Shown: positions 42,683 to 63,794, counted from the stretch's first letter. The stretch: 64,000 nt of DNA from Candidatus Pyrohabitans jungbluthii (GCA_002010065.2 MTMD02000008.1:320001-384000), one strand, 5' to 3'. The notes: generated by a model from the sequence alone, not told the origin. Numbers and translations: made by a program.

Positions 42683-42697
42683 TTTCGAAAGCTGAAA
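42683..42697 (+). promoter_or_regulatory. palindromic box TTTCGAAAGCTGAAA
   Basis: 7-bp spacer, then TTTATG; upstream of the 42760-44335 operon. Confidence 0.7.
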
Positions 42698-42759
42698 AGC
42701 AAAGTTTATGTAAGCTCCTATAGTAGGAATTACTTAACAAATAAAAGGGGGAGTGGGTC

Positions 42760-42999
42760 ATGAAGTCATCTCTTCGCTGTCCAAAGTGCGGAAGTTTAAA
42801 TGTAGAGAAAGGACATCAAGAAGTATTTCCCAGCACTTTTATGAAAGATACTAAATATTCGCTGATAAAGGCTCTTACAAGCTCCAAAGAATTTGAAATA
42901 TACGCCTGCATGGATTGTGGATACGCCGAATGGTATATCCAGGAGAAGTACCTTGAGGATGGAAACCGGGCAAAGGCTGTTGCAAGTTCCAGAGCCTAG
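42760..42999 (+). CDS. zinc-ribbon small protein
   Basis: CPKCG...CMDCGYAEWY. Confidence 0.8.
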   Translation: MKSSLRCPKCGSLNVEKGHQEVFPSTFMKDTKYSLIKALTSSKEFEIYACMDCGYAEWYIQEKYLEDGNRAKAVASSRA

Positions 43000-43016
43000 A
43001 TTTCCAACTCCTTCAG

Positions 43017-43970
43017 ATGAAGGAGGTTATAGGCGTGAGAAGAGCCAGGAATACAAAGAAGAATGGGCCAATTTACATCTTCAACGACTTCTACGACAGG
43101 GGCAATGACCTTTATCTCTACGACTCAAAGGAGGAGCGGCGTTACTACGTGACCAAATCCTTCTTTCAAGCGGGTATAGATAAAAATAAGCTCTGCATTT
43201 ATGCATTTCCCAGGAAACAGGATAGATTCCAGTTCAAGAGCTTTTCTGGTGATGCTTTTCGTGAAATAGAGCTCATAAGAGGGAATATAAAGATGCTAAA
43301 AGGGAGGGACCTAGAAGCATTTTATTCTGATTTTGAGGAGCTCAAGGATTATGCAAAAGATAATGGATATGAGGGCATCCACCTGAAAATCGACTTCGGC
43401 AAAGTTAGAGATGATATAATCGACGAAGTTATCGAGCTTGAAAAAAAGCTTCATAATTCCACGAATGGCATTCCCGTAGCCTCAATAAGCTCATACAACA
43501 TGAATTTTCTCAACCAGGATGCTGTTAACAGCCTCACAAAGCTTCATGACAGGGTGATGATAACCACCGAAAAAGGGGAAACTTCAATAGCATTTTTCCA
43601 GCAGCCAAAAGCAAGACCGGTGCACATCCCGAGAATTGAGGTTATTTCTTCGAAAATGATGGAGCAGATCGTCAAGAAGTCTCTCCAGATTATAATTCTA
43701 TCCCTCCTGAAGCAGCAGCCCATGTGCGGGTTTGACATAATCAAGAGCCTGGTGCACAACTTCAATGTGCTTCTCAGCCAGGGCACGGTGTATCCAATTC
43801 TGTACTCGCTGGAAAAGGAGGGATACCTCAAGACGGTTATAAAGTCGGATAACAAGACAAAGCTTTATGTGCCCACAGAGATGGCCCATGAGTACATAGA
43901 GCGCCAGATACGAGAGTATATCCAAGCTCAGGAGAAGATACTCGCCCTTATCGCGAGGGGATTGAAATGA
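43017..43970 (+). CDS. MEDS-like sensor domain fused to PadR-family wHTH regulator
   Basis: N-terminal FFQAGIDKNKLCIY...IELEKKL...LH pattern; C-terminal IILSLL...GFDII...LSQGTVYPILYSLEKEG. Confidence 0.8.
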   Translation: MKEVIGVRRARNTKKNGPIYIFNDFYDRGNDLYLYDSKEERRYYVTKSFFQAGIDKNKLCIYAFPRKQDRFQFKSFSGDAFREIELIRGNIKMLKGRDLEAFYSDFEELKDYAKDNGYEGIHLKIDFGKVRDDIIDEVIELEKKLHNSTNGIPVASISSYNMNFLNQDAVNSLTKLHDRVMITTEKGETSIAFFQQPKARPVHIPRIEVISSKMMEQIVKKSLQIIILSLLKQQPMCGFDIIKSLVHNFNVLLSQGTVYPILYSLEKEGYLKTVIKSDNKTKLYVPTEMAHEYIERQIREYIQAQEKILALIARGLK

Positions 43971-44335
43971 AGATAATGGTCGTGGACGACGATGATATAA
44001 TCATCGAAGCCATGAAGAATATCCTCACGCCTGAAGGGTTCACAGTCATTGGGGCGAGAAGCGGTGAGGAGTGTCTGCGCATACTTGAAAGGGAGAAACC
44101 AGACTACATCTTTATAGATATCCAGATGCCAGGTATGGACGGTTGGGAAACCCTGCGGGAGATCAAGAAGAGGGAGGAACTTCGCCACATTCCCATTGCA
44201 ATGCTCACCGCCCAGCCTCTGACAAAGGAAACCCTGAAAAAGGACGACATCTACGCGCTTGTGGATTACGTGGTCAAGCCCTTCACTAAGAGGGATATAA
44301 CAGAGACCCTGAAGCAGGCGCTCGTGCTCGTCTGA
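43967..44335 (+). CDS. stand-alone response regulator receiver
   Basis: VVDDD, DIQMPGMDG, MLTA, KPF. Confidence 0.93.
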   Translation: MKIMVVDDDDIIIEAMKNILTPEGFTVIGARSGEECLRILEREKPDYIFIDIQMPGMDGWETLREIKKREELRHIPIAMLTAQPLTKETLKKDDIYALVDYVVKPFTKRDITETLKQALVLV

Positions 44336-44726
44336 GGCACTCAGATTTTTTCATGCTTTTTCGTCGTCAAAGTTGAGATTTGGCTTCTCGTGCTCGGAGA
44401 GTTGTTATAAAGCCGAGATGTTTGATGTTCCACCACGCGGTGTCTTTTACTTCTATTTTTGGTCTCTATATTTATCATGCTGAGCCTCTAAAAGAGATCC
44501 ACTATCCTGGGTGTCTTTAGCTAACCGTTTCTGTGCTTAATTTTCAGTGAGGCTCCAGAACTTTTTGTTGTGTGAGTTTAGAATTACCAAGAGGGGAGTA
44601 TGGAGCTTGTGAGCAGGCGTCTCGGCTAGCAGAGAGCGCCGCAACAAAAATCAGAAGGAACAGAATAATCCGGTGCTAACCAGCGGGAGAAAGCCACAGG
44701 GTTTAGATTGGATGCGGACGACGGGT

Positions 44727-45386
44727 TCACACCCAATTTCTAACGAAGATGGAGCGAATCCCGCTGGGCGAAACCCTGGTGATTTCGCTCATTGTTCCGC
44801 CCACTGGCAGGATTGTTATTGTGAACTCCTTGTTTCCCTCAAGCGGATATGCTCTGTTGTTGGCCTCTATCCAGAAGTGCAGCTCTACATATTCCCCCTT
44901 CTCAAGCACATTGTTGTGGTTCTGCTCAAACACAGGCACCACGTAAAAATCAGCCACCCCGTTCGCTATACCAGAACTGCTGTTTGTGCTGTTCTCCGCG
45001 AGGCTCAAGTCGTTAGTAATGGTCGCGTTATGCCTTATCCCGCTTATGTATACATCTCCGGAGTAGTAGTTTAAAATTATATCGTCATAGCGTATTTCAG
45101 AGCTTCCCGGCGCAAGGGTTACCAGGATTATGAGCTTTGTTATGTTTGGTCCGCCGTTGTTCCAAGTTTCGTTGGCGTAGGCGTAACCGGTTAAGTCCAC
45201 TATCTTAACATTGGTGGAGACCTCCTTCGTCGCCTCCTCGCCGGTAGACCTTGCCTTTGATTGAAGCGTGCCCGTAGTTTTAAGGAGCACGCCTGCAGTG
45301 ATTGCAGCCACCATTACCATTGCTATGAATACTATAAGCGTTCCAATACCAATCTGCGCACGGTTGTTCATTGAAATCGCCGGCAC
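44727..45386 (-). CDS. arlB: archaellin
   Basis: Class III signal RA/QIGIGTLIVFIAMVMVAAITAGVLL; start may instead be ATG 45371. Confidence 0.92.
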   Translation of the reverse strand: MPAISMNNRAQIGIGTLIVFIAMVMVAAITAGVLLKTTGTLQSKARSTGEEATKEVSTNVKIVDLTGYAYANETWNNGGPNITKLIILVTLAPGSSEIRYDDIILNYYSGDVYISGIRHNATITNDLSLAENSTNSSSGIANGVADFYVVPVFEQNHNNVLEKGEYVELHFWIEANNRAYPLEGNKEFTITILPVGGTMSEITRVSPSGIRSIFVRNWV

Positions 45387-45441
45387 TTTAATTTTTATTC
45401 CCCCGTTTTAATCTGGTAGAGTATATTATATAAACATTTTT

Positions 45442-45456
45442 TTTCTTATTCTGAAA
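45442..45456 (-). promoter_or_regulatory. palindromic box (minus strand TTTCAGAATAAGAAA)
   Basis: 7-bp spacer, then TTTATATA; upstream of archaellin 44727-45386. Confidence 0.7.
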
Positions 45457-45461
45457 ATTGG

Positions 45462-45902
45462 CTAGGTGTTAAAGTAATATTCATCCCACACATCCATTTT
45501 TACCAGAGCTTTGATGACGTAGCGCCCTGAGGGAAGTGCGGTTATATTTGCTTCAAGAACCTCATTAGGATCCCACAGGGAATTTTGAAGGTTTGTGCTC
45601 CTGTTAACTATCCGCGTGCCCAGAATGTTCACTCTCTCCCCGTTGAGGAAGAGCATCAAGCTATCTTTAGTGAGTATCGTGCTCCCAGCGTTCAGGATGT
45701 AAACCGACGTGTTGTCGCTTCCGGGATAAACATGAATCACCTTTATCTCAGTGTTTAGCCTCTCTGATATAAGATGGGACTTCTGGGAAATTCCTGTTTT
45801 GACCGCCTGAGAAGCTTCGCTAACCACACCTGCCACGCCAGCAGCAATTATGACTGCAGCGATGAAGAAAATTGCATGCGCTGCCGTGGTACTGAATCCC
45901 AT
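45462..45902 (-). CDS. archaellum accessory protein, ArlF/ArlG family
   Basis: MGFSTTAAHAIFFIAAVIIAA N-terminal TM; YILNAGS; LWDPNE. Confidence 0.8.
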   Translation of the reverse strand: MGFSTTAAHAIFFIAAVIIAAGVAGVVSEASQAVKTGISQKSHLISERLNTEIKVIHVYPGSDNTSVYILNAGSTILTKDSLMLFLNGERVNILGTRIVNRSTNLQNSLWDPNEVLEANITALPSGRYVIKALVKMDVWDEYYFNT

Positions 45903-45903
45903 C

Positions 45904-46350
45904 TCAGCTGCCACCTTTAAACCTGTAATAGGGGGTCCAGAGGTTCCTGTTGAGCACTGCAACGTAGTTCCAGCCCTGTATAAGGCTGGCTGTGAGGTTT
46001 ATCTCGATTATCTCATTCAGACCCCACAGCTCGTTTCCGCGTGGGTTTATCACCTCTATCGAAGAAGGTTCAACCCACTCCCCGTTTATCCTCACTTTAC
46101 TCTGGTCGGGGTCCAGAGCCACGCTTCCCACATTTTCCACATAGATGGAGAGGTTATTCCCCTCGGTATTCACATGCACCACCTTTATGCCTCCCACAAG
46201 CTTCTCCTCAAGCTCTGACTTTTTTGCCAGCGCATTGCTTTCCATGTGGGATACCTGCTGGTTCAGCACACCCACCAGACTTGCTGCCACCACCACCACG
46301 CCTATGAAGAGAATGACCGAGGGCAGGGATTCAGACACTGCTAATCCCAC
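45904..46350 (-). CDS. arlG: archaellum accessory protein ArlG-like
   Basis: VILFIGVVVVAASL TM; IYVENVGS; WGLNE. Confidence 0.75.
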   Translation of the reverse strand: MGLAVSESLPSVILFIGVVVVAASLVGVLNQQVSHMESNALAKKSELEEKLVGGIKVVHVNTEGNNLSIYVENVGSVALDPDQSKVRINGEWVEPSSIEVINPRGNELWGLNEIIEINLTASLIQGWNYVAVLNRNLWTPYYRFKGGS

Positions 46351-47045
46351 CCGTAGTTGTAGTTATCCGCAGGCAGAGTGTGCGCATGAGGCAGAGCCTC
46401 ACCCACGCGGTATTCATCCCAGACGCCGTTCTTCACAATCACCTTGACGCTGCTCTGCACACTGCGCTGGGTGGTTATCTCTACCACATCCCCAGGTCTC
46501 CAGTAGAAGCTGGGAGAGGTATTCGTAGCCACAAACTTGCCGGTTGCAATGGTTATGTTGAACCACCCCACTATACCATAAAGCTGATCAGGAGCCGGTG
46601 TGGAGGGGTTGTATACCTGGGTGTCGTCCTGGGTTGTTAGAGTTAAGGAGGGGTTTGCGCTGCTGTCGTGATATGCACCCTTAACCAAGTAGGTCTTGTT
46701 AACATAGCTCACCTGGAAGTAGCCTAGGGCGCTCACAGTATACGCATCGCTCTCGAGCCATGCGCCATCTATAACCAGAGACACATAGTCAGGGTCTAAA
46801 GTGGTGCTTCCTGTGTTCTCCACATAGATTAAAGTATTTCCTCCGCTTTCGGTTATATTCACTATCTCTATTTTGGTGCTCAGCACCTCCAGGTCTCGCT
46901 TTGACTGCTCCTTTATATTCTCGGCAAGCGTGGTCAGGTAGCTCTCGCCAGCGCTTAAAAGCTCCACCGCTGCAGTTATGCCTGCCATGAAAATTATAAG
47001 AAAGGCCGCAGCGGTGGCAAATCCCAACCCACCACCCCCTATCAC
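46341..47045 (-). CDS. arlF: archaellum accessory protein ArlF-like
   Basis: GFATAAAFLIIF TM; VENTGSTTL, LVIDG, YWRPGD, VKNG. Confidence 0.75.
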   Translation of the reverse strand: MIGGGGLGFATAAAFLIIFMAGITAAVELLSAGESYLTTLAENIKEQSKRDLEVLSTKIEIVNITESGGNTLIYVENTGSTTLDPDYVSLVIDGAWLESDAYTVSALGYFQVSYVNKTYLVKGAYHDSSANPSLTLTTQDDTQVYNPSTPAPDQLYGIVGWFNITIATGKFVATNTSPSFYWRPGDVVEITTQRSVQSSVKVIVKNGVWDEYRVGEALPHAHTLPADNYNYGWD

Positions 47046-47950
47046 ACTATGCCCGACTCATCGAGCTGGTTTACAACCTCTGAGTAAAGGGTGGGGCTTA
47101 CATCCATTCCCTGAAGCTTGATTATGAAGAAGAGGGAGATGATGTGCTCTAGGATGGTGAGTTTTCGATTGCCTCTCGAAGCACGTGTACCGCCGAGGTC
47201 GCGGGAATACTTTATTATCTGGTCCCTAACCTCCTTGGTTATCCAGCCAACCTCCTCATAGAATAGCAATGTTTTTATCATGCCCTGGTAGCCCACCTTC
47301 TTTATAAGAAAGTCCAACCACTTGAAGAGGAGGAGCAGCGAGTTGGGGTCGTTGTTTATCCGCGTTAGCCTCACCACTGCACCATCTGGCTTTATATCCA
47401 CCATCCCCTTTTCCACCATGCGCTCCTCTAGCATCTGCCCTTCAGAAGTAGCCGACAGCACAGATTTCTTCTCCTTTTTCTCCAGCTCATTACCATTCCC
47501 GTTTTCAATCCCGTTGGAATACCCTATAAATGGATTTATCTCATTGGTCACAAGCTCATAAACAGAGAGCAGACCTTCCATATTTTTCTCAATCTTTGAT
47601 ATCCTTTCATCAAAACCGCTAACAAGGTTCTCAATCTTTGCCACTGTATCGCTTATCTCTGAAACCCTTTCCTCGAGCTGGGAAATAGCTTCCTGGGACA
47701 CAGAAGCGGCTGGGCTAAAGCTCTCCTCCGCCGGTGCCTCCCCGAAGGGCGGAGCATCACTTGCTTTATCTTCAGCCTCAGAAAAGAAGGGCGGGAGGTC
47801 CTCATCCTCTGCGTCTGTTTTCACCACCTCTCCAAAGGGCGGCACCTCTGATTTTTCCTCTTCCAGCGCCTTTTCGTTCAGTTCCCCAAGGTCGATCTTC
47901 TTATCCTTCAATCCGAGAACCAGCCCAACGCTAAGCAGTTCAAGCATCAA
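47042..47950 (-). CDS. ArlC/D/E fusion (archaellum switch complex)
   Basis: ArlC-like LSVYELVTNEINPF; ArlD/E-like KWLDFLIKKVG...FYEEVGWIT...EHIISLFFI. Confidence 0.88.
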   Translation of the reverse strand: MMLELLSVGLVLGLKDKKIDLGELNEKALEEEKSEVPPFGEVVKTDAEDEDLPPFFSEAEDKASDAPPFGEAPAEESFSPAASVSQEAISQLEERVSEISDTVAKIENLVSGFDERISKIEKNMEGLLSVYELVTNEINPFIGYSNGIENGNGNELEKKEKKSVLSATSEGQMLEERMVEKGMVDIKPDGAVVRLTRINNDPNSLLLLFKWLDFLIKKVGYQGMIKTLLFYEEVGWITKEVRDQIIKYSRDLGGTRASRGNRKLTILEHIISLFFIIKLQGMDVSPTLYSEVVNQLDESGIV

Positions 47951-48554
47951 TTTTTATCCCCTCTCTCCTCGTATTTACCTGGTTGACCGGTATATCACGC
48001 CTCATTCTGAGAAGTTCCACTTCTTTTCTGGCGGATCTCAACTCTCTCTCCAGCTCTTTTATCCTTCTTCTCAGGTTTCTTATGTTTATCTCCTTTATTA
48101 TTCCTAATCTGTACCATTTCTCGATTTCTTTTGCTGCCAAGGTGGGGTTTCTGAGATTCTGAACCTTCGATCTTTTAAACCACTCTTCGAGTTCCTTCAA
48201 ACTGTAGAGCAGCTCCAGGTCTTCACTGGGCAGGTTTATGCCGCGCACCTCCCCCAGCACAGGCTGCGATATCCTCTTTTTTACAGGTATGGGATCGCTC
48301 ACATTCATCCTGCCCTTCAGGAGAGCGCCGTAGGTTATCAGAGCAATGGCGGCGAAGGCTACGTAGAGAATAAACCAAGTCGCCAGGTTACCTTCCTTGT
48401 TTACCACAAGATTTACAGGTAGTAGCATTATAAGCATGCCCACTGTCGCTGTCAGTGACCAGTATAGACTCCACACCATCTTATTCTTCCTCTTTATATA
48501 ACTCTCAAGTTCATCCATCAGCACAGCATCTGGCGAGGTCTGGATTATATACAT
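47940..48554 (-). CDS. 2-TM plus coiled-coil hypothetical protein heading the arl operon
   Basis: Two TM helices and a C-terminal coiled coil; overlaps the arlCDE start. Confidence 0.75.
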   Translation of the reverse strand: MYIIQTSPDAVLMDELESYIKRKNKMVWSLYWSLTATVGMLIMLLPVNLVVNKEGNLATWFILYVAFAAIALITYGALLKGRMNVSDPIPVKKRISQPVLGEVRGINLPSEDLELLYSLKELEEWFKRSKVQNLRNPTLAAKEIEKWYRLGIIKEINIRNLRRRIKELERELRSARKEVELLRMRRDIPVNQVNTRREGIKIDA

Positions 48555-48606
48555 CCCCCCATGTATGTTATAATAACCCCATTTTTCTGTCTATTTAAAG
48601 GTTGTT

Positions 48607-48621
48607 TTTCGGAAAATGAAG
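48607..48621 (-). promoter_or_regulatory. palindromic box (minus strand CTTCATTTTCCGAAA)
   Basis: 7-bp spacer, then TTTAAAT; upstream of the arl operon. Confidence 0.65.
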
Positions 48622-48659: not shown

Positions 48660-48674
48660 TTACGTTTTTCGAAA
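48660..48674 (+). promoter_or_regulatory. degenerate box TTACGTTTTTCGAAA
   Basis: 7-bp spacer, then TATATC; upstream of the 48723 micro-ORF. Confidence 0.5.
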
Positions 48675-48722
48675 CTAAACCTATATCTACCTTAATTGAT
48701 AATTTTGAAGAAGGTGTTAAAA

Positions 48723-48869
48723 ATGTGGAGCTGTCCTGTTTGCGGATCAACGGAGTTTGTTCTAACGCCAAATGGGGGTAAAGTGCAGAAGGTACGCTGC
48801 GCTACATGCGAACGTACCTTTATACTTGAGGAGCTCCGCCTCCTTGACGGATACAGCAGAAACTGGTAG
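48723..48869 (+). CDS. 48-aa CPxCG zinc-finger microprotein (not in ORF track)
   Basis: MWSCPVCGSTEFVLTPNGGKVQKVRCATCERTFILEELRLLDGYSRNW; AGGTG SD. Confidence 0.75.
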   Translation: MWSCPVCGSTEFVLTPNGGKVQKVRCATCERTFILEELRLLDGYSRNW

Positions 48870-48870
48870 C

Positions 48871-49353
48871 TCACAGTTCTCTCACGCCTTCCCTCACGGT
48901 TCTTACCAAGAGCTTCCCGGAAGAGGTGTCAAATTCCAGGGTTCTCCCAACATTTCCACCGGTATCTTCAGCAACTATCCTTATATCTTCTTTTTCAAGG
49001 ATATTTTTTACAGCGATGACATTTTTTCTTCCTATATAGTCATTTTTTGGTGTAAAATAGAACATCTTCGCCCCACCTGCTATCTTTGCAACAATTCTGG
49101 ATTTTGATGCTCCGAGTTTCAGCATCTTCTCAATTGCCAGAGGAATAGCGGTGTCCACATACTTTGCTCTGTTCTCCACTGGTTGGAAATTCCTGCTGCT
49201 GGGCAGCATTATATGAGCTAAAGACCCAACCTTGGACGTGGAATCGAAAAGGGCGACGCCAACACAGGAACCCAACCCAATACTCACCAGCTTCGCTGGT
49301 TTGGTCGCGGCTTTAACGTCGGCGATGTCTACAACAATCACCGGCGGAGACAT
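48871..49353 (-). CDS. cheD: chemoreceptor glutamine deamidase CheD
   Basis: GLGSCVGV, HIMLP, AKIAGGAKMF, EDTGGNVGR. Confidence 0.96.
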   Translation of the reverse strand: MSPPVIVVDIADVKAATKPAKLVSIGLGSCVGVALFDSTSKVGSLAHIMLPSSRNFQPVENRAKYVDTAIPLAIEKMLKLGASKSRIVAKIAGGAKMFYFTPKNDYIGRKNVIAVKNILEKEDIRIVAEDTGGNVGRTLEFDTSSGKLLVRTVREGVREL

Positions 49354-49355
49354 GC

Positions 49356-51862: not shown

Positions 51863-51886
51863 GAACCCCTCCCCTTTGCCTCGAAG

Positions 51887-52243
51887 CTAGCAGAGCTTCT
51901 CAATTACCTCGAGCACCTTATTCTCCTTGAAGGGCTTCACAATGAAATCCCTTGCTCCAGCATCAAGCGCTTCCTTGACCATAGCCTCCTGTCCTAGGGC
52001 ACTTACCATTACTATCTTCGCCTCCGGGTCAATTGCCATAATCTGCCGCACCGCCTCTATTCCATTCACTTCCGGCATTATTATGTCCATTGTTACAACG
52101 TCTGGCTTGAGCTCCGTATATTTCTTCACGCCTTCTGCGCCGTTCTGGGCCTCCCCAACTATTTGATGCCCGTTTTTACCCAGAATGTTCTTCAGCATCA
52201 TTCTCATAAAGGCAGCATCGTCCACAATCAACACCTTTGCCAT
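51887..52243 (-). CDS. cheY: chemotaxis response regulator CheY
   Basis: IVDDAAFMRMML, MDIIMP, FIVKPF. Confidence 0.96.
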   Translation of the reverse strand: MAKVLIVDDAAFMRMMLKNILGKNGHQIVGEAQNGAEGVKKYTELKPDVVTMDIIMPEVNGIEAVRQIMAIDPEAKIVMVSALGQEAMVKEALDAGARDFIVKPFKENKVLEVIEKLC

Positions 52244-52247
52244 GTCC

Positions 52248-53490: not shown

Positions 53491-53505
53491 TTTCAGGACT
53501 CAAAA
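53491..53505 (-). promoter_or_regulatory. palindromic box (minus strand TTTTGAGTCCTGAAA)
   Basis: 7-bp spacer, then TTTATTA; upstream of the HK-cheYACD operon. Confidence 0.7.
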
Positions 53506-53539: not shown

Positions 53540-53647
53540 TCACTGTGGCCCATGAGTCTGCTCTTCCAACTCATAGGTGATGCTCTGGCCTCTTGTGCTA
53601 TAATAGACGATCTTATCCCCCACTATCTCAAAGGCATCGTATCGCAT
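53540..53647 (-). CDS. 35-aa microprotein (not in ORF track)
   Basis: MRYDAFEIVGDKIVYYSTRGQSITYELEEQTHGPQ; GGGGGGT SD; own boxed promoter at 53697. Confidence 0.55.
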   Translation of the reverse strand: MRYDAFEIVGDKIVYYSTRGQSITYELEEQTHGPQ

Positions 53648-53696: not shown

Positions 53697-53711
53697 TTTC
53701 GGATCTTGAAC
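53697..53711 (-). promoter_or_regulatory. palindromic box (minus strand GTTCAAGATCCGAAA)
   Basis: 7-bp spacer, then TTTATTT. Confidence 0.65.
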
Positions 53712-53728: not shown

Positions 53729-53743
53729 TTTCGGCTACCGAAA
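53729..53743 (+). promoter_or_regulatory. palindromic box TTTCGGCTACCGAAA
   Basis: 7-bp spacer, then TTAATATATA; upstream of the REC-HK pair. Confidence 0.72.
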
Positions 53744-53822
53744 AGTTAAGTTAATATATATAGTTTAAATATTCCTTAGTGATATATACTGTTGAAAAAT
53801 CCATAGTTCGGAGGATTAAAAT

Positions 53823-55861: not shown

Positions 55862-57208
55862 TTATATTTCCCAAGGTGGCTTCTCCTCTGATTCCTGCAT
55901 GCTCTCCTTTCTGCTTTTGATCCGCTCCTCTATCTTAGCCATGTCATCCCAGTCTTCCTGAACCTCCTCCTTCGCTGGATATGCGTTCCTCGCAAAGGTG
56001 AGGAACACCTCGCCTAGAGGAGTCATCTTAACCTCGGTAGCTGCCCGCTGCACAATCCCGTAGTATTCCAGCACCTTCAGCGCTTCGTTCACCTCCTCTT
56101 TTGGCAGGTCGCTTTTCTGCACAATCTCCTGAAGCTGCATGGTGCCCTTCTCCAGAAGATTCAGAAGCACAATATCGCTCGCCGTTGGTAGCACCGAGAA
56201 GGCATCTATCTGCTCAAGGGTAATTTCATACACACACGCAGCGCCACCTGCGTTTCTGCACTCTACCTCCCTTATTGTGACGCCAATCTTCAGGTTCTCC
56301 ATGAAGAACCTTCCCACTGCCGTCGAAGTTGTGTGACATGCCCCACCCGGCACCATTGCACAAACGTGGCAGCCCTCCACACGGAGGCGGTAGGTTAGCG
56401 GTGCCTTGCTTTGGAGCGAGACCTTTTCGCCAATTCCCGCGCGCATGAGCATGTTCTCAATCAGGAGCCGAAGCCTGTCATCCTCGAAAACACCTGTCGC
56501 GGAAGAGCGCAGAAATGCTCGCCTCGCAGCCACTGGCACTGTGATACTTTCAAGGAAATCATTAACCCTCTCTTCAACCTCAAATAATTTCTCAAAGCTT
56601 CCCAGCAGCTCTGAGAAGTTCAGAGGTTCCTCCTCAAACCCCTGAAGCTCAACATTCATTATCCTCCGGATGTCCTCCTCATTCAGATAGAAATACAGGT
56701 GACAGTAGGTGAAATCAGAATCCTGCAGGGAAGTACTGAAAAAGAGCACACCCTCCTTATTTACGCCGAGAGCTGCAAGAAGGTCCGGAATTGAGCGAAT
56801 TCTGCCTGCGCTCAAATCTGGAGAGGAGATTTTCACCTTCACCCCAAAAAAATCAGAAATCGCCTTTACGAAGGAACCTGCCATCTTTCTGCCTACTTCC
56901 TGGAGCATACCATCAAGCTCCGAAACGGAACCGGGATTACCAATACACTGACCTACTTTCAGCGCACCCTTAATAGGAAAAAAGAAGAGAAGGGTACCTG
57001 TTATTGCATCTCCAAAGGTATAGACGCTGACAATCACCCCCTCCTCTCCCACCTTCTCCGCCATATCCTTCCCCGCTATTACGTCTATCACCGGCGGCGT
57101 TATTGACACCTTTGCGCTCAGCATATCCGAGAGGGAGCTTGCAGAGTGGCTAGAGCCAATGTTTCCAACCTCACGCAGCGCATCCTTAGCAAAACTGCTG
57201 AGGTTCAC
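55862..57208 (-). CDS. CheC-like + V4R + winged-helix fusion protein
   Basis: N-terminal DALREVGNIG (CheC); EGCHVC...ACH...EVECRNAGGAACVYEI (V4R); C-terminal wHTH. Confidence 0.8.
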   Translation of the reverse strand: MNLSSFAKDALREVGNIGSSHSASSLSDMLSAKVSITPPVIDVIAGKDMAEKVGEEGVIVSVYTFGDAITGTLLFFFPIKGALKVGQCIGNPGSVSELDGMLQEVGRKMAGSFVKAISDFFGVKVKISSPDLSAGRIRSIPDLLAALGVNKEGVLFFSTSLQDSDFTYCHLYFYLNEEDIRRIMNVELQGFEEEPLNFSELLGSFEKLFEVEERVNDFLESITVPVAARRAFLRSSATGVFEDDRLRLLIENMLMRAGIGEKVSLQSKAPLTYRLRVEGCHVCAMVPGGACHTTSTAVGRFFMENLKIGVTIREVECRNAGGAACVYEITLEQIDAFSVLPTASDIVLLNLLEKGTMQLQEIVQKSDLPKEEVNEALKVLEYYGIVQRAATEVKMTPLGEVFLTFARNAYPAKEEVQEDWDDMAKIEERIKSRKESMQESEEKPPWEI

Positions 57209-57723
57209 TTATACCCCTCCTCCATCATTATGAGCTTCCCCTTCTCTGTGAGTATCCCTGCCTCTGTGCATATCCCCTCTCGCTTAAACTCCTCCAGAAT
57301 GCTCACTATCTCATCGTAATCACGCTTGACAAGGGGCATTATGTTCTCAGGCCTCCTCACACCGTGATAAAGCGCCTTAAGCACCAGCCTCTTGGCGTCG
57401 GTAAATTTAATGGCGCCCACGGTATCAGAGGCCGTGGGGAGCACGCTCATTAGGGCGTTGTAGAGGGAATAGACCTTTGGCTTCTTTCCCCCTATAAAGG
57501 TCTTGGTGTTGTCGATAACCATCACCAAGATAGAGTTTCCGCCGGCGGCGTCCTTTATCTCAGAGATGCTGACATGCTCATTGGGTATCTTTTTCCAGCC
57601 CTTATCTGTCTTTATCCAAACGTTCAAATCCGTTGAAGCAAGAACTATCTTCTTCCAGTCCTTAAAATTCGTTGAGAAGTACACATTCTCCACTTTAAAG
57701 AGAAGCTTCTCCTGCTCCGCCAT
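57205..57723 (-). CDS. cheF: short CheF-like adaptor
   Basis: WKKIVL PH-like N-terminus; C-terminal VLKALYHG...LTEKGK as in CheF; lies downstream of archaellins. Confidence 0.6.
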   Translation of the reverse strand: MAEQEKLLFKVENVYFSTNFKDWKKIVLASTDLNVWIKTDKGWKKIPNEHVSISEIKDAAGGNSILVMVIDNTKTFIGGKKPKVYSLYNALMSVLPTASDTVGAIKFTDAKRLVLKALYHGVRRPENIMPLVKRDYDEIVSILEEFKREGICTEAGILTEKGKLIMMEEGYK

Positions 57724-57725: not shown

Positions 57726-58409
57726 TTAGCCCCACTCAGAGATGTACTTCTTGCCGAAGGAACTGGGCGCCGTTTTCTTTACCGTGGTGGTCTGCCCTGC
57801 TTTTGGCTGAAGAATCAGGGTGAACTCCTGGTCGGGCTGAATGGGCAGATCGTTGCCCAGGTTGTCCTCAATCCAGTAGATTATCTCTACTATCTCGCTC
57901 TGCTCCAGTACAGAGTTGGGATTCTGGGGGTTCTTGTCCTTTATCCTTCTTATGTAGAACTGAGCCACGTCGGTGTCTGTACCATTTATAACATTCTCGG
58001 CTTTTGAAATTTCGTCAGTAAGACTAAGAATCCCCTGCGAGGCGTTGTTGCTTCCGGTGCCATTGAACTTTATGCCCACAATGTAGTTATCGCCGGAATG
58101 GTAGGCAAGCACCATATCCTCGTACTTCACATCCCCACTTCCTGCGGCAAGCTGCACGCGTAGTATTACCGCATTTATTCTCTCCCGAGATGTATCGTTC
58201 ACATAACCTATTACATCCACAACCTTTACATTCGTCGAGACTTCTTTGGTTGCTTGCTCACCCGTTACAGTGGCCTTCTGTTGAAGTCCACCAGAAGTGC
58301 GAAGCAGCACACCTGCTGCGACCGCAGCCACGAGAACCATGGCTATGAAGATTATCAGCGTGCCAATACCCACCTGCGCCCTGCGACAGGATAGCAAATT
58401 CCTCCCCAT
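57726..58409 (-). CDS. arlB: archaellin
   Basis: RRA/QVGIGTLIIFIAMVLVAAVAAGVLL. Confidence 0.95.
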   Translation of the reverse strand: MGRNLLSCRRAQVGIGTLIIFIAMVLVAAVAAGVLLRTSGGLQQKATVTGEQATKEVSTNVKVVDVIGYVNDTSRERINAVILRVQLAAGSGDVKYEDMVLAYHSGDNYIVGIKFNGTGSNNASQGILSLTDEISKAENVINGTDTDVAQFYIRRIKDKNPQNPNSVLEQSEIVEIIYWIEDNLGNDLPIQPDQEFTLILQPKAGQTTTVKKTAPSSFGKKYISEWG

Positions 58410-58458
58410 TTTATCTCCCCGTGTATAGTGTGAATAAATGAGAATTATAAAGGTTATT

Positions 58459-58473
58459 TTTTGGATTTCGAAA
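58459..58473 (-). promoter_or_regulatory. palindromic box (minus strand TTTCGAAATCCAAAA)
   Basis: 7-bp spacer, then TTTATAA. Confidence 0.72.
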
Positions 58474-58508: not shown

Positions 58509-59198
58509 TTATCCCCACTCTGTGGTGTACTTCTGGTTAATCACGCTGGGTGCAGTCTTCTTGACCGTTGTTGTCTGTCCTGCCTTGGGCTGCACTGTGA
58601 GCACAAACTGATCGTCCGGGTCAAGAGGCACGTCGGTGCCGTCGTTCTTCTCAAGCCAGAAGAGTATCTCTATTATCTCCCCCGGCTCAAGCACTTCGTT
58701 GGGCGTTGAATCTCTGTCCTTCAGCCTGCGGATGTAGAACTGAGCCTTGTCGTAGTCTGTACCCGAACTGAGATTGGCATTCTCTATGCCAGAAGCGATG
58801 CCCCCACTGAGGGAGTACAGACTGTCGCTCAATGCTTTTGTACTGTTGTACTTGATGCCACTCACGTAGGTGTCTCCCTCCTGGTAGGTGAGCACTATGT
58901 CCTCATACTTGACGTCGCCGCTGCCAGAGGCGAGCTGCGCCGTGAGGATGAGTGCCCTTATCTTCTTGTTGCTCGTGGTGTCGTTACTGTAGCCCACGAC
59001 GTTCGTAACCTTGATGTTCGTTGAGACTTCTTTTGTTGCTTGTTCACCTGTCACCGTGGCCTTCTGCTGAAGTCCACCCGACGTCTTGAGAAGAACGCCC
59101 GCTGCCACCGCTGCAACCAGGATCATCGCTATGAAGATTATCAGTGTGCCAATTCCTACCTGCGCTCGCTTGTCCCTGAAAAATTTCTCACCCCTCAT
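58509..59198 (-). CDS. arlB: archaellin
   Basis: MRGEKFFRDKRA/QVGIGTLIIFIAMILVAAVAAGVLL. Confidence 0.95.
   Translation of the reverse strand: MRGEKFFRDKRAQVGIGTLIIFIAMILVAAVAAGVLLKTSGGLQQKATVTGEQATKEVSTNIKVTNVVGYSNDTTSNKKIRALILTAQLASGSGDVKYEDIVLTYQEGDTYVSGIKYNSTKALSDSLYSLSGGIASGIENANLSSGTDYDKAQFYIRRLKDRDSTPNEVLEPGEIIEILFWLEKNDGTDVPLDPDDQFVLTVQPKAGQTTTVKKTAPSVINQKYTTEWG
58988..59162. repeat. 175-bp direct repeat shared with 59704-59878 (archaellin 5' regions)
   Basis: Identical except one base (59145 vs 59861). Confidence 0.9.
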
Positions 59199-59251: not shown

Positions 59252-59914
59252 CTATCCCCACTCAGTTATGAACTGCTGGGAAATCACGCTGGGCACTGTC
59301 TTCTTGACCGTGGTAGTCTGTCCTGCCTTGGGCTGCACTGTGAGCACAAACTGGTCGTCTGGTGCCAATGGATTGGTCAGCGCCAGCTCGTTGCCGCTGT
59401 TGTCCACCAGCCAGTAGACGATCTCTATTATCTCCCCAGGCTCCAGCACGGTATTGGGAGTGGAATCCTTGTCCTTGAGTCTGCGGATTTCGAAGACCGC
59501 TTTGTTCTGTGAGTCTGCTGTAGTGTTAACATTTTCCAGCGCGTCAGTGAGACTCAGTACGCCACCATAGGCGATGCCGCTCACGTAGGTGTCGCCTTCC
59601 TGGTAGGTGAGCACTATGTCGTCGTACTTCACATCCCCGCTACCAGAGGCAAGCTGAGCGGTGAGAATGATGGCATCAACGCGGTTGTTGTTGGTATTGT
59701 TGGTGTAGCCCACGACGTTCGTAACCTTGATGTTCGTTGAGACTTCTTTTGTTGCTTGTTCACCTGTCACCGTGGCCTTCTGCTGAAGTCCACCCGACGT
59801 CTTGAGAAGAACGCCCGCTGCCACCGCTGCAACCAGGATCATCGCTATGAAGATTATCAGAGTGCCAATTCCTACCTGTGCTTTCCTGTTTCTCAGAAAC
59901 TCCCCAACCTTCAT
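59252..59914 (-). CDS. arlB: archaellin
   Basis: RKA/QVGIGTLIIFIAMILVAAVAAGVLL. Confidence 0.95.
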   Translation of the reverse strand: MKVGEFLRNRKAQVGIGTLIIFIAMILVAAVAAGVLLKTSGGLQQKATVTGEQATKEVSTNIKVTNVVGYTNNTNNNRVDAIILTAQLASGSGDVKYDDIVLTYQEGDTYVSGIAYGGVLSLTDALENVNTTADSQNKAVFEIRRLKDKDSTPNTVLEPGEIIEIVYWLVDNSGNELALTNPLAPDDQFVLTVQPKAGQTTTVKKTVPSVISQQFITEWG

Positions 59915-59974
59915 ACAACCCCTCCTATTAGGTTTTAAGAACTAACACCCTGAGAATTGTATATATAATTTTTT

Positions 59975-59989
59975 TTTCGAGCTTCGAAA
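59975..59989 (-). promoter_or_regulatory. palindromic box (minus strand TTTCGAAGCTCGAAA)
   Basis: Near-perfect palindrome, followed by A6-TTATATAT; upstream of the tandem archaellins. Confidence 0.78.
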
Positions 59990-60074: not shown

Positions 60075-60569
60075 TCATTTGATTAACTGCCACCATGCAT
60101 TGTGAAAATATGAAAAATCGCATGAATTATCATAAGCAGATAAGAATCTATTGGAATACCTATCCAGATAAACTTCCACGCGCCATTTTTGATTTTTTGG
60201 GTCATATTTAAATTTTCTGTCCGCAAACAATTTTTCAAGCTCCAGAGTATTTATTATAAAGAAATCATAGTCTATCGCATTCCTCTCGCTTTGGTCAAAA
60301 TGAACCCCCACTAATACATAGAAGACATTCTCGCTAAGTATCTCCCTGTGAAGCATCCTTGATATTTCCCACCAGTAGCTGTACTGCGCTCCTCTGGGTA
60401 GATATCTGTCGAAGTACTTTTTGCTTGTTTTTATCTGAAGAGCTATAAACTTATTCCTGTTATACCCGACAACATCTATTCCTTTATCTTTCACCGGAGC
60501 AAAGCTGCCAAATTCCATGTGTGTGAGGCGATGGAAGACCTCCAAAACGCCTAAGCTGCCGGTATCCAA
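60075..60569 (-). CDS. PD-(D/E)XK nuclease-fold protein
   Basis: G.LGVLEV...DKGIDVV...ALQIKTS motif; TTG start assumed; AT-rich. Confidence 0.65.
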   Translation of the reverse strand: MDTGSLGVLEVFHRLTHMEFGSFAPVKDKGIDVVGYNRNKFIALQIKTSKKYFDRYLPRGAQYSYWWEISRMLHREILSENVFYVLVGVHFDQSERNAIDYDFFIINTLELEKLFADRKFKYDPKNQKWRVEVYLDRYSNRFLSAYDNSCDFSYFHNAWWQLIK

Positions 60570-60618: not shown

Positions 60619-60633
60619 TTTCGAACTCCGAAA
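60619..60633. promoter_or_regulatory. palindromic box TTTCGAACTCCGAAA between divergent genes
   Basis: TATA-like sequences on both sides (minus TTATAT; plus TTTATAA). Confidence 0.72.
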
Positions 60634-60669: not shown

Positions 60670-61014
60670 ATGGGGGGTAATAAAAAGGAAAATCTTGAAC
60701 TACGAGCCTACAAACTTGGTTTTGAGGTCGGCTTCCACACACACGACGAATGGACAAGCTGGGTCTGGAAGGAGAAAAAGAAGATTTTTGATGAGGCAAG
60801 GAAAAGCAAACTTCTGGATAGAATAGAAGTTGCATATGAAAGGGGCAAATTTGAGGGTTTTTTGAGAAAAAAGAGAATGAAGGGAAAGGAGAGTATAATT
60901 AAGAATAAGTCAGGAATAAAAGTTATAGAAAAGCCATCATTTATCTCAAAACCTGCAATGACGGATGTTATGAAAGCAGTTCTTCTACCAAAATTTCTCA
61001 AATTTTTTAAATAG
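60670..61014 (+). CDS. basic hypothetical protein
   Basis: AYKLGFEVG...H.E...W...YERGK.EG pattern; C-terminal P-x5 periodicity. Confidence 0.75.
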   Translation: MGGNKKENLELRAYKLGFEVGFHTHDEWTSWVWKEKKKIFDEARKSKLLDRIEVAYERGKFEGFLRKKRMKGKESIIKNKSGIKVIEKPSFISKPAMTDVMKAVLLPKFLKFFK

Positions 61015-61732
61015 TTTTAAGAAGACTGGTGATTCTTATACCATTTTTAGTTATTTCGAATCTGCGGAGGTTACAATCATGCTTTGTGCCCCGCATTTTT
61101 ATTATCTGAATCGCCCGTGTCATCTGGGAATTTGAAAGAAAGTTGTGGAGGAAGATTACCCCATGGGCAAGGAAGTGCTCCGGAAGATACCTCTCCGGGT
61201 CAGTCATTTCGGAGAGCAGCAGGGTGGTGCACCCGATTTTCTGAAGCCCCCGCATAAACTCCCCCATCTGTTTCTTCTCAAACCTCGGATCGGCGCCTAT
61301 AAATTTGATGGCGGAGAGGGAGTCTATCACGAGCCTTTTAATCCCTCTGAACTTCACGTGCTCGGAGATTCTCGAAAGAAGCTGCTTGTAGGTTGGAAAC
61401 TCCACAGAGGTCTCCAGCATTTCCCCAATGTCCATGAACAGGAGCTTTCCAGATGTAACAAGTTCTTCTATTTTGAAGGAAAAGGAAGTCATATCAGATA
61501 TTATGTTCTCTACATCCTCCACAAGAGAGACAAAAAGGCCACGCTCCCCCTGCCAAGCACCGCAGGCAAGGAACTGCACTCCAAAGGTGGTCTTTCCACT
61601 GCCCGGAGGGCCACTAACCACATAAATTCTGTTGGGCAAAAGACCGCCCTCAATCAGGGAGTCCAGCCCGGTGATGCCTGTATTTACTCGAGTTTTAGGC
61701 CTAGGTGTTCTAAGAGCTGCCATCAATTTCAT
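61007..61732 (-). CDS. single-domain KaiC/RAD55-like ATPase
   Basis: TGITGLD, GPPGSGKT, RLVIDSL, IIKMRG.H. Confidence 0.9.
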   Translation of the reverse strand: MKLMAALRTPRPKTRVNTGITGLDSLIEGGLLPNRIYVVSGPPGSGKTTFGVQFLACGAWQGERGLFVSLVEDVENIISDMTSFSFKIEELVTSGKLLFMDIGEMLETSVEFPTYKQLLSRISEHVKFRGIKRLVIDSLSAIKFIGADPRFEKKQMGEFMRGLQKIGCTTLLLSEMTDPERYLPEHFLAHGVIFLHNFLSNSQMTRAIQIIKMRGTKHDCNLRRFEITKNGIRITSLLKTI

Positions 61733-61774
61733 TCCCCGTATGATGAGTTCTTAAAGAACTAATTAAAGATTTTT

Positions 61775-61789
61775 TTTCATTTCTCGAAA
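61775..61789 (-). promoter_or_regulatory. palindromic box (minus strand TTTCGAGAAATGAAA)
   Basis: 7-bp spacer, then TTTAATT; upstream of the KaiC-like gene. Confidence 0.7.
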
Positions 61790-61861
61790 CATATCCAGAA
61801 GGATTAACCTTAAAAGAATCTTATTTAAGCTAAAGTTTAGCACAAATTTCGGAGGGAATGG

Positions 61862-62884
61862 ATGGGGGAGCGCATAAAAGTACTCGTAGTAGACGACTCG
61901 GCATTAATGCGCAAGCTGATTTCAGACATGATTAATTCCTCACCAGACTGCGAGGTTATAGGCATAGCAAGAGACGGAGAAGAAGCTATTGAAAAGGTAA
62001 ACCAGCTTCGTCCGGACGTTGTTACCCTCGACGTGGAGATGCCCCGTATTAATGGCTTAGAGGCGCTGGCGCACATCATGATGCACATGCCCACGCCTGT
62101 GATAATGCTCTCGGCACTCACAAAGGAAGGCGCGGAAACAACAATGAGAGCGCTTGAGCTGGGTGCCGTCGATTTTATCGCCAAACCTGGAGGAAAGAGT
62201 ATATCCGTGGGCATAGAGGAAATAAAGGAAGAGCTTTTGAAAAAGATACGCGTGGCTGCGCGTGCGAAGCCTAAGAGGCTTTATATTCGTAGGAAAAAGA
62301 AGCATTTACTGCCGAAAAAACTGCGTGAAAACATTGCTATCGTCTTCGGCGCTTCCACAGGTGGACCGGGAACTTTGATGGATATACTTCAAGCTTTACC
62401 CGCCGACATGCCCCCTGTTTTTATAGTCCAGCACATGCCCCCTGGCTTCACCTCCTCCTTCGCGAAGAGACTTAATGCCCTTTCTCGCTTTGAGGTTAAA
62501 GAAGCGGAGGATGGGGACGTCATAGAGTCTGGGGTGGGGTATGTAGCACCAGGAGATTACCACATGGTCATCCGGAGAGGTCGCATAAGGCTCACTAAGG
62601 AACCAAAGCTGCATGGCGTAAGACCTGCGGTGGACAAGACCATGGAAAGTGCAGCAGAGGTCTACGGGAAAAACACCATCGGTGTTCTTCTCACTGGAAT
62701 GGGTAACGACGGAGCGGAGGGGCTCAAAAAAATCAGGGCCTTAGGGGGTAGGACAATCGTTGAAGACAGCTCCACCTGCGTGGTCTTCGGCATGCCCAAG
62801 GCTGCGATCGAAGCTGGGGCAGCTGAAGTTATCGCCCCCAACTATAGAATCGCTGACGAGATTATAAGGATGCTGGGAGAATGA
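61862..62884 (+). CDS. cheB: chemotaxis methylesterase CheB
   Basis: REC domain plus GASTGGP, QHMP, RPAVD, LTGMGNDG. Confidence 0.97.
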   Translation: MGERIKVLVVDDSALMRKLISDMINSSPDCEVIGIARDGEEAIEKVNQLRPDVVTLDVEMPRINGLEALAHIMMHMPTPVIMLSALTKEGAETTMRALELGAVDFIAKPGGKSISVGIEEIKEELLKKIRVAARAKPKRLYIRRKKKHLLPKKLRENIAIVFGASTGGPGTLMDILQALPADMPPVFIVQHMPPGFTSSFAKRLNALSRFEVKEAEDGDVIESGVGYVAPGDYHMVIRRGRIRLTKEPKLHGVRPAVDKTMESAAEVYGKNTIGVLLTGMGNDGAEGLKKIRALGGRTIVEDSSTCVVFGMPKAAIEAGAAEVIAPNYRIADEIIRMLGE

Positions 62885-63696
62885 TCACCTCAAGCCAGGA
62901 CTATTTCCCGCTGCTGAAAAGGAAGATTAAGGACATTATGGACTTCAATAGCGAATTCTACGAAGACAAACATCTGAGGAGAAGGGTTGCCATCAGAATG
63001 CGTGCCCTCGACATCGCCTCCTACAGAGAATACCTGAGGATACTAGAAAGGGACAGAGATGAGCGCATAAAACTTTCAAAGGTTCTCACGGTCAATGTCA
63101 CAGAATTCTTCCGCAATCCAGAGACCTTTGAGGTTATCAGGCGCGACGTATTACCTGAACTGATTAAGCTCAAGCTGAACAACAGCAGTAGGGTGCTCCG
63201 CCTGTGGAGCGCCGGATGTGCTGACGGCAAAGAGCCCTATTCTCTTGCGATGCTCATAAAAGATGTGCTCAACGGAAGAGATGACTTCATGGTAAAGATA
63301 ATGGCAACTGATATAGATATAGACAGTCTTGAAAAGGCAAGACTCGGCATATATCACAAGGACGAGTTGAGGGGGATAAGAAAGGACTACCTTAAGAAGT
63401 ACTTTGAAAAGACCGCAAGGGGCTACAGGGTAAAGGAGGAAATAAGGAAGATGGTGACATTTGAGCGCAGGGATCTAATCTCAGATAGAAAGTACAAGGT
63501 TATGGACGTAATACTGTGCAGGAATGTGATTATATACTTCTCGAAGGAGTTAAAAGAAAAGCTGTTTATGGACTTCTATGACTCGCTAAACACAGGCGGT
63601 TTTCTGATTCTGGGTAAGACTGAGAACTTGACCGGCCCTGCAAGGAAAAAATTTGTGGTGTACAACAATGTTGAAAGAATTTATAGAAAGATGTAG
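62881..63696 (+). CDS. cheR: chemotaxis methyltransferase CheR
   Basis: NVTEFFRN, WSAGCADGKEPYS, ATDID, CRNVIIYF. Confidence 0.97.
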   Translation: MITSSQDYFPLLKRKIKDIMDFNSEFYEDKHLRRRVAIRMRALDIASYREYLRILERDRDERIKLSKVLTVNVTEFFRNPETFEVIRRDVLPELIKLKLNNSSRVLRLWSAGCADGKEPYSLAMLIKDVLNGRDDFMVKIMATDIDIDSLEKARLGIYHKDELRGIRKDYLKKYFEKTARGYRVKEEIRKMVTFERRDLISDRKYKVMDVILCRNVIIYFSKELKEKLFMDFYDSLNTGGFLILGKTENLTGPARKKFVVYNNVERIYRKM

Positions 63697-63779
63697 GGGA
63701 ACCCTAAAAGGGCCCCCCTCCCCCACACCTTTCCCCGGAGGTATTGAGTTATCTGTAATAGTAATATAAGTAGATTATC

Positions 63780-63794
63780 TTTCGAATTCTGAAA
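63780..63794. promoter_or_regulatory. palindromic box TTTCGAATTCTGAAA
   Basis: Exact reverse complement of 21431-21445. Confidence 0.6.

Follow-up and report, generated by a model that had tools for sequence, protein, structure and literature searches.

A conserved palindromic box at motility and signalling promoters of Candidatus Pyrohabitans jungbluthii and related archaea, with a MEDS-PadR protein as candidate activator

Introduction

The stretch of DNA analysed here, hereafter the window, comprises 64,000 nt of the deep-sea archaeon Candidatus Pyrohabitans jungbluthii (host genome G000, 1.99 Mb, 99.95% complete). It carries archaellin, arl, chemotaxis (che), histidine-kinase (HK), REC and KaiC-like genes, and copies of a 15-bp palindrome, (g)TTTCRR-N3-YYGAAA, here called the box, stand before many of them, next to the transcription factor B (TFB) recognition element (BRE) and the TATA element. 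One box precedes an operon encoding MEDS-PadR, a protein with a PadR winged helix. This work indicated that the regulon marked by the box is real and conserved, with MEDS-PadR as a strong candidate activator. Archaeal motility regulators are known for a few groups only (EarA, CsmR and the Arn network), and the part of a review that was accessible names no factor above earA (PMC10117864). The present findings point to a definite operator and to a specific protein as candidate factor, together with a cascade that may act on earA.

Labels beginning with G denote genomes of the phylum Hydrothermarchaeota, 38 of which were examined, and C, L and P denote contigs, loci and proteins. Gene calls come from our own simple caller, by which some short genes were missed. 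The published papers are cited from the parts of their text that were accessible.

Results

The box in the window

An earlier note on this DNA had listed 13 copies of the box, and a box was indeed present at 13/13 coordinates, with six exact copies, four carrying one mismatch and three carrying two, relative to the consensus TTTCRRNNNYYGAAA (Table 1). A fourteenth, weaker copy at 53671 was absent from that list. Six exact copies were found versus 0.12 expected, and 14 copies with at most one mismatch versus 2.41 expected, each number being reached in 0/100 shuffles; the host genome holds ten exact copies, 6/10 of them inside the window. A TATA-like 8-mer (at least 3.4 bits) stands 7 bp from 12/13 boxes, in line with the 11 or so previously claimed. 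The TATA of the 63780 box is better at a 9-bp gap, and alternating TATATA at the 60619 and 53729 boxes leaves a 2-bp uncertainty in the gap. Housekeeping promoters, said to be free of the box, scored 8.2 (ogg), 0.0 (hypF), -0.6 (ileS) and -3.5 bits (galU), the weakest listed box reaching 10.9. The proposal of a dimeric-factor site that differs from the EarA site and is fixed just upstream of the BRE was supported, and such sites are conserved at motility and signalling promoters across genera. By contrast, control of the whole motility programme is unsupported, because two loci lack the box, namely the other che operon at C8:58901 (3.0 bits at best) and the gene for a methyl-accepting chemotaxis protein (MCP) at C1:66352 (0.2 bits), and because no TATA stands 7 bp from the 61775 box on the side of cheB-cheR.

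Table 1. Boxes and associated genes in the window, in order of position. Mismatches are counted against the box consensus.
Feature	Position	Strand	Remarks
Box, exact, 137 bp before nurA-herA	21431..21445	+	TATA 21453-21460
Box, exact, before Zn-finger/MEDS-PadR/REC operon	42683..42697	+	TATA-like 42705-42712
79-aa CxxC zinc-ribbon protein, first gene of regulator operon	42760..42999	+	weak Zn-ribbon matches
MEDS-PadR, candidate activator: N-terminal MEDS (inactive RecA/KaiC-like), C-terminal PadR winged helix	43017..43970	+	Pfam MEDS, PadR
Stand-alone REC protein	43967..44335	+	Pfam; adjoins MEDS-PadR in most relatives
Box, 2 mismatches, before archaellin 44727-45386	45442..45456	-	TATA 45427-45434
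Box, 2 mismatches, before TM204-arlCDE-arlF/G operon 45462-48554	48607..48621	-	TATA 48592-48599
Box, 2 mismatches, before 49-aa micro-ORF	48660..48674	+	TATA-like 48682-48689
49-aa CxxC...CxxC zinc-ribbon micro-protein	48723..48872	+	weak Zn-ribbon matches
Box, 1 mismatch, before PAS-HK-cheY-cheA-cheC-cheD (48871-53456)	53491..53505	-	TATA-like 53476-53483
35-aa micro-ORF behind 53697 box	53540..53647	-	tblastn matches in G001-G004, G006, G032
Box, 1 mismatch, before 35-aa micro-ORF	53697..53711	-	TATA 53682-53689
Box, exact, before REC (53823-54245) and PAS-HK (54196-55314)	53729..53743	+	TATA-like 53751-53758
Box, 1 mismatch, before archaellin 57726-58409, CheF-like PH protein, CheC-V4R-wHTH	58459..58473	-	TATA 58444-58451
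Box, exact, before tandem archaellins 59252-59914 and 58509-59198	59975..59989	-	TATA 59960-59967
Box, exact, between divergent genes 60075-60566 and 60670-61014	60619..60633	.	TATA-like on both sides
KaiC-like ATPase	61007..61732	-	Pfam KaiC
Box, 1 mismatch, before KaiC-like gene	61775..61789	-	TATA-like 61760-61767
Box, exact, facing cheR 3' end	63780..63794	-	TATA at 9-bp gap; conserved G-rich hairpin next
ORF, open reading frame; HK, histidine kinase; wHTH, winged helix-turn-helix.

Specificity in the host genome

With a matrix trained on 11 window boxes, a box of at least 10 bits was found directly upstream in only 9/586 promoters with a called BRE-TATA. Seven of these nine are training sites, and the two held-out ones belong to arlHIJ (contig C6) and to a multiheme cytochrome gene. 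The right half, YGAAA, stands at the box position in 7/586 promoters and the left half in 10, both together in 3 versus 0.12 expected. A looser genome list further includes an MCP-like gene, as well as an ABC transporter and some non-coding stretches. On contig C6, arlH, two arlI and arlJ (C6:12068-17818) lie behind a box at C6:17858 with a 7-bp gap.

These counts bear on whether an extended or back-to-back BRE, a general promoter feature without a dedicated factor, could account for the motif. In Methanocaldococcus, an extended BRE includes CCGAAA (PMC5512572), and several boxes do lie between divergent genes. Against this, the box ends 7 bp before the TATA and thus lies outside the BRE slot, it was found at 9/586 promoters only, its half-sites are coupled, its central spacer is strictly 3 bp, and genes that are not divergent are boxed as well (45442, 58459, 59975). 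The extended-BRE reading is therefore largely refuted, and we give it hardly any weight.

Conservation across Hydrothermarchaeota

The conservation set consisted of 39 loci from 19/20 archaellin-positive genomes, G000 and G019 being set aside. Boxes were found at orthologous promoters in G001-G004, including that of the archaellin behind the 45442 box, and, in G015, G022, G023, G032, G033 and G035, at arl, che, kinase and REC promoters that have been rearranged. In loci L001-L039, a central spacer of 3 bp gave 41 matches of at least 16 bits, while ten other spacers gave 0-1; an MsvR-type TTCG-N7-9-CGAA was not enriched in arl loci, where only the N5 spacing (central 3) was. Among 146 oriented sites of held-out genera, TATA stands at gap 7 in 35, at gaps 5 and 9 in nine each, and at other gaps in 0-4. 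An extra half-site 12 bp further on was seen at only 5/146 oriented Hydrothermarchaeota sites.

The box also precedes the orthologous regulator operon in G001, G003, G015, G023, G033 and others, and the 42683 box is probably the autoregulatory site of the MEDS-PadR operon. The 79-aa zinc-ribbon gene adjoins MEDS-PadR in G001-G004, G015, G022 and G023. REC is fused to the same PadR family in P0040, P0044-P0047 and P0204, and the stand-alone REC protein at 43967-44335 is a likely signal input to MEDS-PadR. As for the two micro-ORFs that the earlier note counted among the targets, a conserved pair does exist (48723-48872 and 53540-53647), the 49-aa protein showing 63-78% identity in G001-G004 and G006; the 22-aa micro-ORF at 21431, by contrast, has no tblastn match in relatives.

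In locus L055 (G020:C123), the box and the Zn-finger gene are kept, beside arlF-like pieces, and MEDS-PadR is reduced to an N-terminal remnant; this locus is a decaying regulon.

MEDS-PadR as the candidate factor

Full-length MEDS-PadR was found in 19/38 phylum genomes, 17/19 of which also carry archaellins. The median excess of box+TATA matches over a reversed control was 8 in genomes with MEDS-PadR and 0 in genomes without it. G036 and G037, which hold archaellins and EarA, gave no MEDS-PadR match and have no box before earA. The recognition helix is invariant (SQGxVYP in 23/23 aligned homologues) and the N-terminal MEDS part diverges. In the structural model (predicted local distance difference test, pLDDT, 82), the C-terminal part resembles LmrR/PadR and the N-terminal part an inactive RecA-like Elp456 fold. 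The PadR domain spans roughly residues 205-317. A scan of genome contigs with the single protein returned 4 close relatives and one weak bacterial match only.

Of the three binders put forward in the earlier note, 43017-43970 (MEDS-PadR) indeed tracks the motif, whereas the other two do not. The 73-aa winged helix-turn-helix (wHTH) protein at 13413-13634 occurs in 37/38 genomes, boxless ones included, and is uninformative for that reason; it was rejected, as was a further candidate, the 172-aa PH-winged-helix (PH-wH) protein at 57205-57723, found in only 9/38 genomes. The third, the CheC-V4R-wHTH protein at 55862-57208, shows a weak MsvR match over its V4R part, and MsvR binds TTCG-N7-9-CGAA (PMC3729527); EarA, for its part, controls arl operons in other Euryarchaeota (PMC10665913, PMC5512572). 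A site read by EarA or by this MsvR-like V4R protein is nevertheless very improbable. The V4R protein was found in 9/38 genomes and not in the box-bearing G005-G008, G011, G033 and G035, and the box, read as TTCG-N5-CGAA, falls outside the MsvR spacing. The EarA profile (PF07381) gave no match in G000-G004, G015, G023, G032, G033 and G035, and strong matches in 8/38 genomes. EarA sites are described as TACATA or A(C/G)(C/G)TACA(T/C) (PMC10665913), and these were found in 0/4 window archaellin upstream regions; with no earA found in G000 either, EarA was rejected as the box binder there.

EarA and a possible second tier

In six relatives (G005-G008, G010 and G011), the lead arlB carries an EarA-type 8-mer in place of the box, which scores at most 4.3 bits there. 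A box of 15-19 bits stands instead before the confirmed earA of G005, G006, G007, G008 and G011, that is, in 5/6 genomes that hold both EarA and MEDS-PadR. Because the box precedes earA instead of arlB in these five EarA-bearing relatives, the data suggest a regulatory cascade with the box factor above earA. The control described in the earlier note as distinct from the EarA type accordingly needs refining: no EarA was found in G000, but the box precedes earA itself in some relatives. In G011, earA directly follows MEDS-PadR; in G006 and G008, the earA box is displaced outward by one step, and a second half-site follows at 12 bp. Two results do not fit this scheme, namely the earA of G022, a genome with EarA and MEDS-PadR, which has no box, and the upstream regions of arlB in G032, boxed in 0/4 cases.

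Archaellum clusters of two kinds can be told apart in the phylum, with EarA-type sites before arlB (L012, L013, L016-L018, L023) or with the box (L001-L010, L020-L021); G022 holds pieces of both kinds.

The same PadR family and box outside the phylum

A profile scan of metagenomes provided the best 80 of 119 loci, of which the 69 more distant ones (L096-L164) were analysed separately, against a background of neighbouring genes and shuffles rather than a genome-wide one. Gas-vesicle genes occur in 29/69 distant loci, often beside REC, PAS-HK, DUF835, PadR and KaiC genes; KaiC genes also follow the same PadR family in gas-vesicle loci. Carriers include Methanotrichaceae, Ca. Methanoperedens and Methanoplanus endosymbiosus (P0110), and the same PadR domain is fused to TIR (Methanothrix), PAS, DUF835 and REC (P0134, P0104, P0071, P0105). 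Among 33 dereplicated clusters drawn from 67 distant loci with a called PadR, 10/33 hold a non-coding box of at least 16 bits, whereas 30 shuffles gave 0.27 on average. When the distant loci were searched blindly for dyads, CAGG-N17-CCTG ranked first, GTTT-N9-AAAC second and TTTC-N7-GAAA fourth. Upstream boxes were found for 18/62 gvp, REC or PadR genes versus 1/64 other genes (a KaiC gene), in a comparison where some divergent pairs share one box and kin are not independent. Of 17 half-site-like words at ten dereplicated boxed gvpA promoters (from 27 gvpA loci), eight stood 12, 24 or 36 bp downstream versus 1.1 expected, the word having been chosen after the sequences were seen. The box-to-TATA gap in distant lineages, as measured with the window matrix, is not 7 bp.

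These loci help to weigh whether the box is a true operator bound by another factor, MEDS-PadR being only a regulated member or a travelling co-factor. A gene that has a box of its own will necessarily co-occur with boxes, the factors profiled were four candidates and EarA only, and kin genomes are not independent in the co-occurrence counts. Several further observations also speak against MEDS-PadR as the binder: G014 (8 versus 2) and G030 (7 versus 2) show excess box matches without a full-length MEDS-PadR match, box matches in G007 fall below the control (3 versus 17), in G028 the recognition helix of the homologue is degenerate and no box adjoins the gene, and the paralogue at C1:72866-73774 could be binder or co-binder. 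On the other hand, all but one of the G014 matches that were re-examined failed the box+TATA filter, the box follows the PadR clade into gas-vesicle loci without an archaellum, including those of Methanotrichaceae and Methanoperedens, and PadR is the only shared DNA-binding gene seen there. We thus consider a different binder unlikely, and MEDS-PadR the preferred factor.

Possible kinship and site likeness to GvpE

GvpE of pNRC100 matches Pfam PadR, and GvpD matches Pfam KaiC. Both GvpE and MEDS-PadR match PF03551, with 75 aligned columns and an hhalign probability of 96.6 for the family profile, and GvpE shares CG and LSxGTVYP motifs with the family. A tree of 99 columns, for which 34/54 rows of an earlier alignment were kept and p-vac GvpE and new outgroups were added, united the family (94/94) and placed the GvpE group next to it as its sister (90/68), 28 generic PadRs serving as outgroup. 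This kinship is tempered by three results. On the domain hidden Markov model, GvpE scored 34.7 bits and generic PadRs 37.6-55; a tree without the sisterhood of GvpE and the family was not rejected (approximately unbiased test, p-AU 0.35); and the support for that sisterhood is only 90/68. In a tblastn search of plasmids with the window PadR domain, GvpE was not among the matches listed (40 of 136).

The published upstream activating sequence (UAS) of GvpE reads TGAAACGG-n4-TGAACCAA, with the consensus YGAAAYGA, and adjoins the BRE; it is intolerant of spacing changes, and its distal part functions in both orientations (PMC2241852). Four haloarchaeal gvp loci were scanned with the window-trained matrix. 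The single best of about 5,500 positions fell on the distal UAS part in two of them, c-vac (10.8 bits, 2/300 shuffles) and Haloplanus (7.5 bits, 8/300 shuffles). In both, the site reads TTAC-N7-GAAA, and a half-site comes 12 bp further along; TTAC is likewise the left half of the 48660 box in the window. The palindrome is, against this likeness, weak in H. borinquense (4.0 bits, 38/300) and degraded in the p-vac of NRC-1. From the overlap of the sites, the GvpE UAS may correspond to a box palindrome with a phased half-site. Taken together, the comparisons point with moderate strength to kinship of MEDS-PadR with GvpE. By analogy, MEDS-PadR may act like GvpE; strict membership of the GvpE family is not established, because two defining features were not found and the tree is undecided.

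Other features of the boxed loci

The target of the 21431 box may be the nurA-herA operon or else a short G-rich hairpin RNA. Downstream of the two orphan boxes, 21431 (21475-21530, +) and 63780 (63690-63750, -), stand an identical G-rich run and a short hairpin; the hairpins are conserved in G001-G004 where read, the one at 63690-63750 running antisense toward the cheR end, and they are possibly a pair of small RNAs. Outside the window, from C8:252772 onward in G000, a box and a strong TATA lead to a non-coding stretch of about 125 nt with a conserved terminal helix, also present in G001, G002 and G004 (L183:2071-2270, L176, L182). This stretch, with two-sided change at only 1/31 predicted pairs (3 sequences), is a candidate small RNA of the regulon. 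Rfam gave no match in five loci around box-driven non-coding stretches. At C2:193169, box and TATA are kept in G001-G004, and nothing more than a short hairpin and a T-run follows, on the strand antisense to the neighbours. At C15:35734 (-), they precede a short Cys-/Trp-rich ORF, possibly frameshifted, which we take to resemble the 'two-CW' signalling domain.

No Pfam family was found for either of the divergent genes at 60075-60566 and 60670-61014. The protein at 57205-57723 has a single PH domain, is 95-98% conserved in the genus, resembles CheF clusters (scores 0.91-0.92) and co-occurs with the CheC-V4R-wHTH fusion in the same nine genomes; Pfam CheF gave no match in G000. A gene recognised by eye as FtsZ-like lies behind a box and a strong TATA in L232 and L235 (G015:C78, G023:C12), a possible link to cell division or shape.

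Discussion

The data establish the motif and its spacing, and they show that it is conserved and co-occurs with the MEDS-PadR family. From a mechanistic point of view, we consider it probable, from these sequence comparisons, that a MEDS-PadR dimer binds the palindrome beside the BRE, recruits TFB and the TATA-binding protein (TBP) and turns on motility and signalling genes together with its own operon. The downstream half-site would abut the A-rich 7-bp BRE, so that the bound dimer would aid TFB and TBP loading, a recruitment already proposed for GvpE (PMC4390858) and for EarA (PMC5512572). Archaellin, arl, che, histidine-kinase, REC and KaiC genes would thus be switched on, and activation of the regulator operon through the 42683 box would provide positive feedback. 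Activity would most likely be set by the MEDS domain, the co-encoded REC and the KaiC-like ATPase, as GvpD does for GvpE. This input is proposed because of the analogy with GvpD and CirA and of the REC-PadR fusions seen elsewhere, and the KaiC-like protein at 61007-61732 is a possible GvpD/CirA-like modulator. In relatives of the EarA type, the same factor would act at a higher tier, through earA. Elsewhere among the archaea, this family and its operator may control gas-vesicle genes, in many cases with additional half-sites spaced by 12 bp.

From these data we infer that MEDS-PadR binds the box directly and activates, and that MEDS, REC and KaiC play the roles given above, activation resting on the box geometry and on the analogy with GvpE. 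Most bacterial PadR proteins are repressors or dual regulators, and MEDS-PadR could likewise bind the box mainly as a repressor or a dual regulator that crowds the BRE. The downstream half-site does touch the BRE slot, some boxes lack a 7-bp TATA or lie near the gene start (C6:17909), and MsvR represses from a similar inverted repeat beside the BRE (PMC3729527). However, the 13 window boxes never overlap the TATA and keep a fixed gap, which is the geometry needed for GvpE activation (PMC2241852), and BRE scores at 6/9 boxed promoters are 2.3-2.5, below the median of 3.5. A repressor would also more likely be lost in motile genomes, yet the great majority of MEDS-PadR genomes carry archaellins, as noted above. 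Repression as the main role is thus improbable, a little more so than a different binder, and activation by MEDS-PadR remains our preferred reading.

The proposed operator and its candidate factor offer several perspectives. GvpE binding and recruitment are left as a presumption in the accessible parts of the published work (PMC4390858, PMC2241852), and a non-halophilic, probably heat-stable relative with a clean palindrome would make tests of both feasible. A census of archaeal two-component systems describes the interaction of stand-alone REC proteins with neighbouring HTH proteins as untested (PMC5847659); the REC protein encoded next to MEDS-PadR, given the REC-PadR fusions of other genomes, offers a direct case for such a test. 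GvpD and GvpE were called haloarchaea-specific in a 2022 review (PMC9501494), a view that would be broadened by the related regulators which adjoin gvp genes in Methanotrichaceae. In a literature search made largely without subscription papers, no MEDS-PadR or GvpE-like archaellum regulator was found, nor the box motif.

The box system can be compared with several known ones. EarA of Methanococcus maripaludis and Thermococcales likewise acts at archaellin promoters from a site immediately upstream of an A-rich BRE (PMC5512572, PMC10665913), but belongs to another protein family (PF07381), uses TACATA-type repeats and serves one operon, versus many promoters here. Closer in scope, CsmR/CirA of Haloferax volcanii governs an EarA-independent arl and che regulon with a KaiC-like modulator, from a semi-palindromic site upstream of BRE-TATA; CsmR is, however, a small Lrp-like protein without a MEDS or PadR domain, and its site is TATCA-N4-TGATA (PMC13286277). 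MsvR of methanogens shares an inverted repeat near the BRE, made up of the halves TTCG and CGAA, with a spacer of N7-9 versus N5 here; it is a redox repressor of the ArsR-V4R type that acts on its own gene and on stress genes (PMC3729527).

The GvpE system is alike in its PadR-fold regulator, autoregulation, nearby KaiC-like gene and site adjoining the BRE at a fixed distance, the UAS half-site YGAAAYGA fitting the right half of the box; half-sites repeated at 12 bp are shared too, common at gvpA promoters elsewhere and rare in Hydrothermarchaeota. It differs in that the targets here are archaellum, chemotaxis and two-component genes, gas-vesicle proteins including gvpA giving no match in G000, where a gvpDE operon setting was not found either, and in that the regulator here carries MEDS at its N-terminus and is accompanied by REC. 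The sites differ as well: the UAS is published as two direct 8-nt elements 4 nt apart (20 nt; PMC2241852), and haloarchaea show about 10-11 bp after the proximal half-site, whereas the window has clean single palindromes with a 7-bp gap and no extra proximal half-site. The whole suggests that one regulator family drives swimming in some archaea and floating in others. More tentatively, and with somewhat less than even confidence, the GvpE-containing PadR clade and its one operator could form a general positioning switch, for swimming in Hydrothermarchaeota (directly or via earA) and for floating in Methanotrichales, Methanoperedens, haloarchaea and others; its MEDS, REC, PAS, DUF835 and KaiC partners would make it a missing transcriptional output of two-component and KaiC signalling, the GvpE UAS then being the palindrome with 12-bp-phased half-sites.

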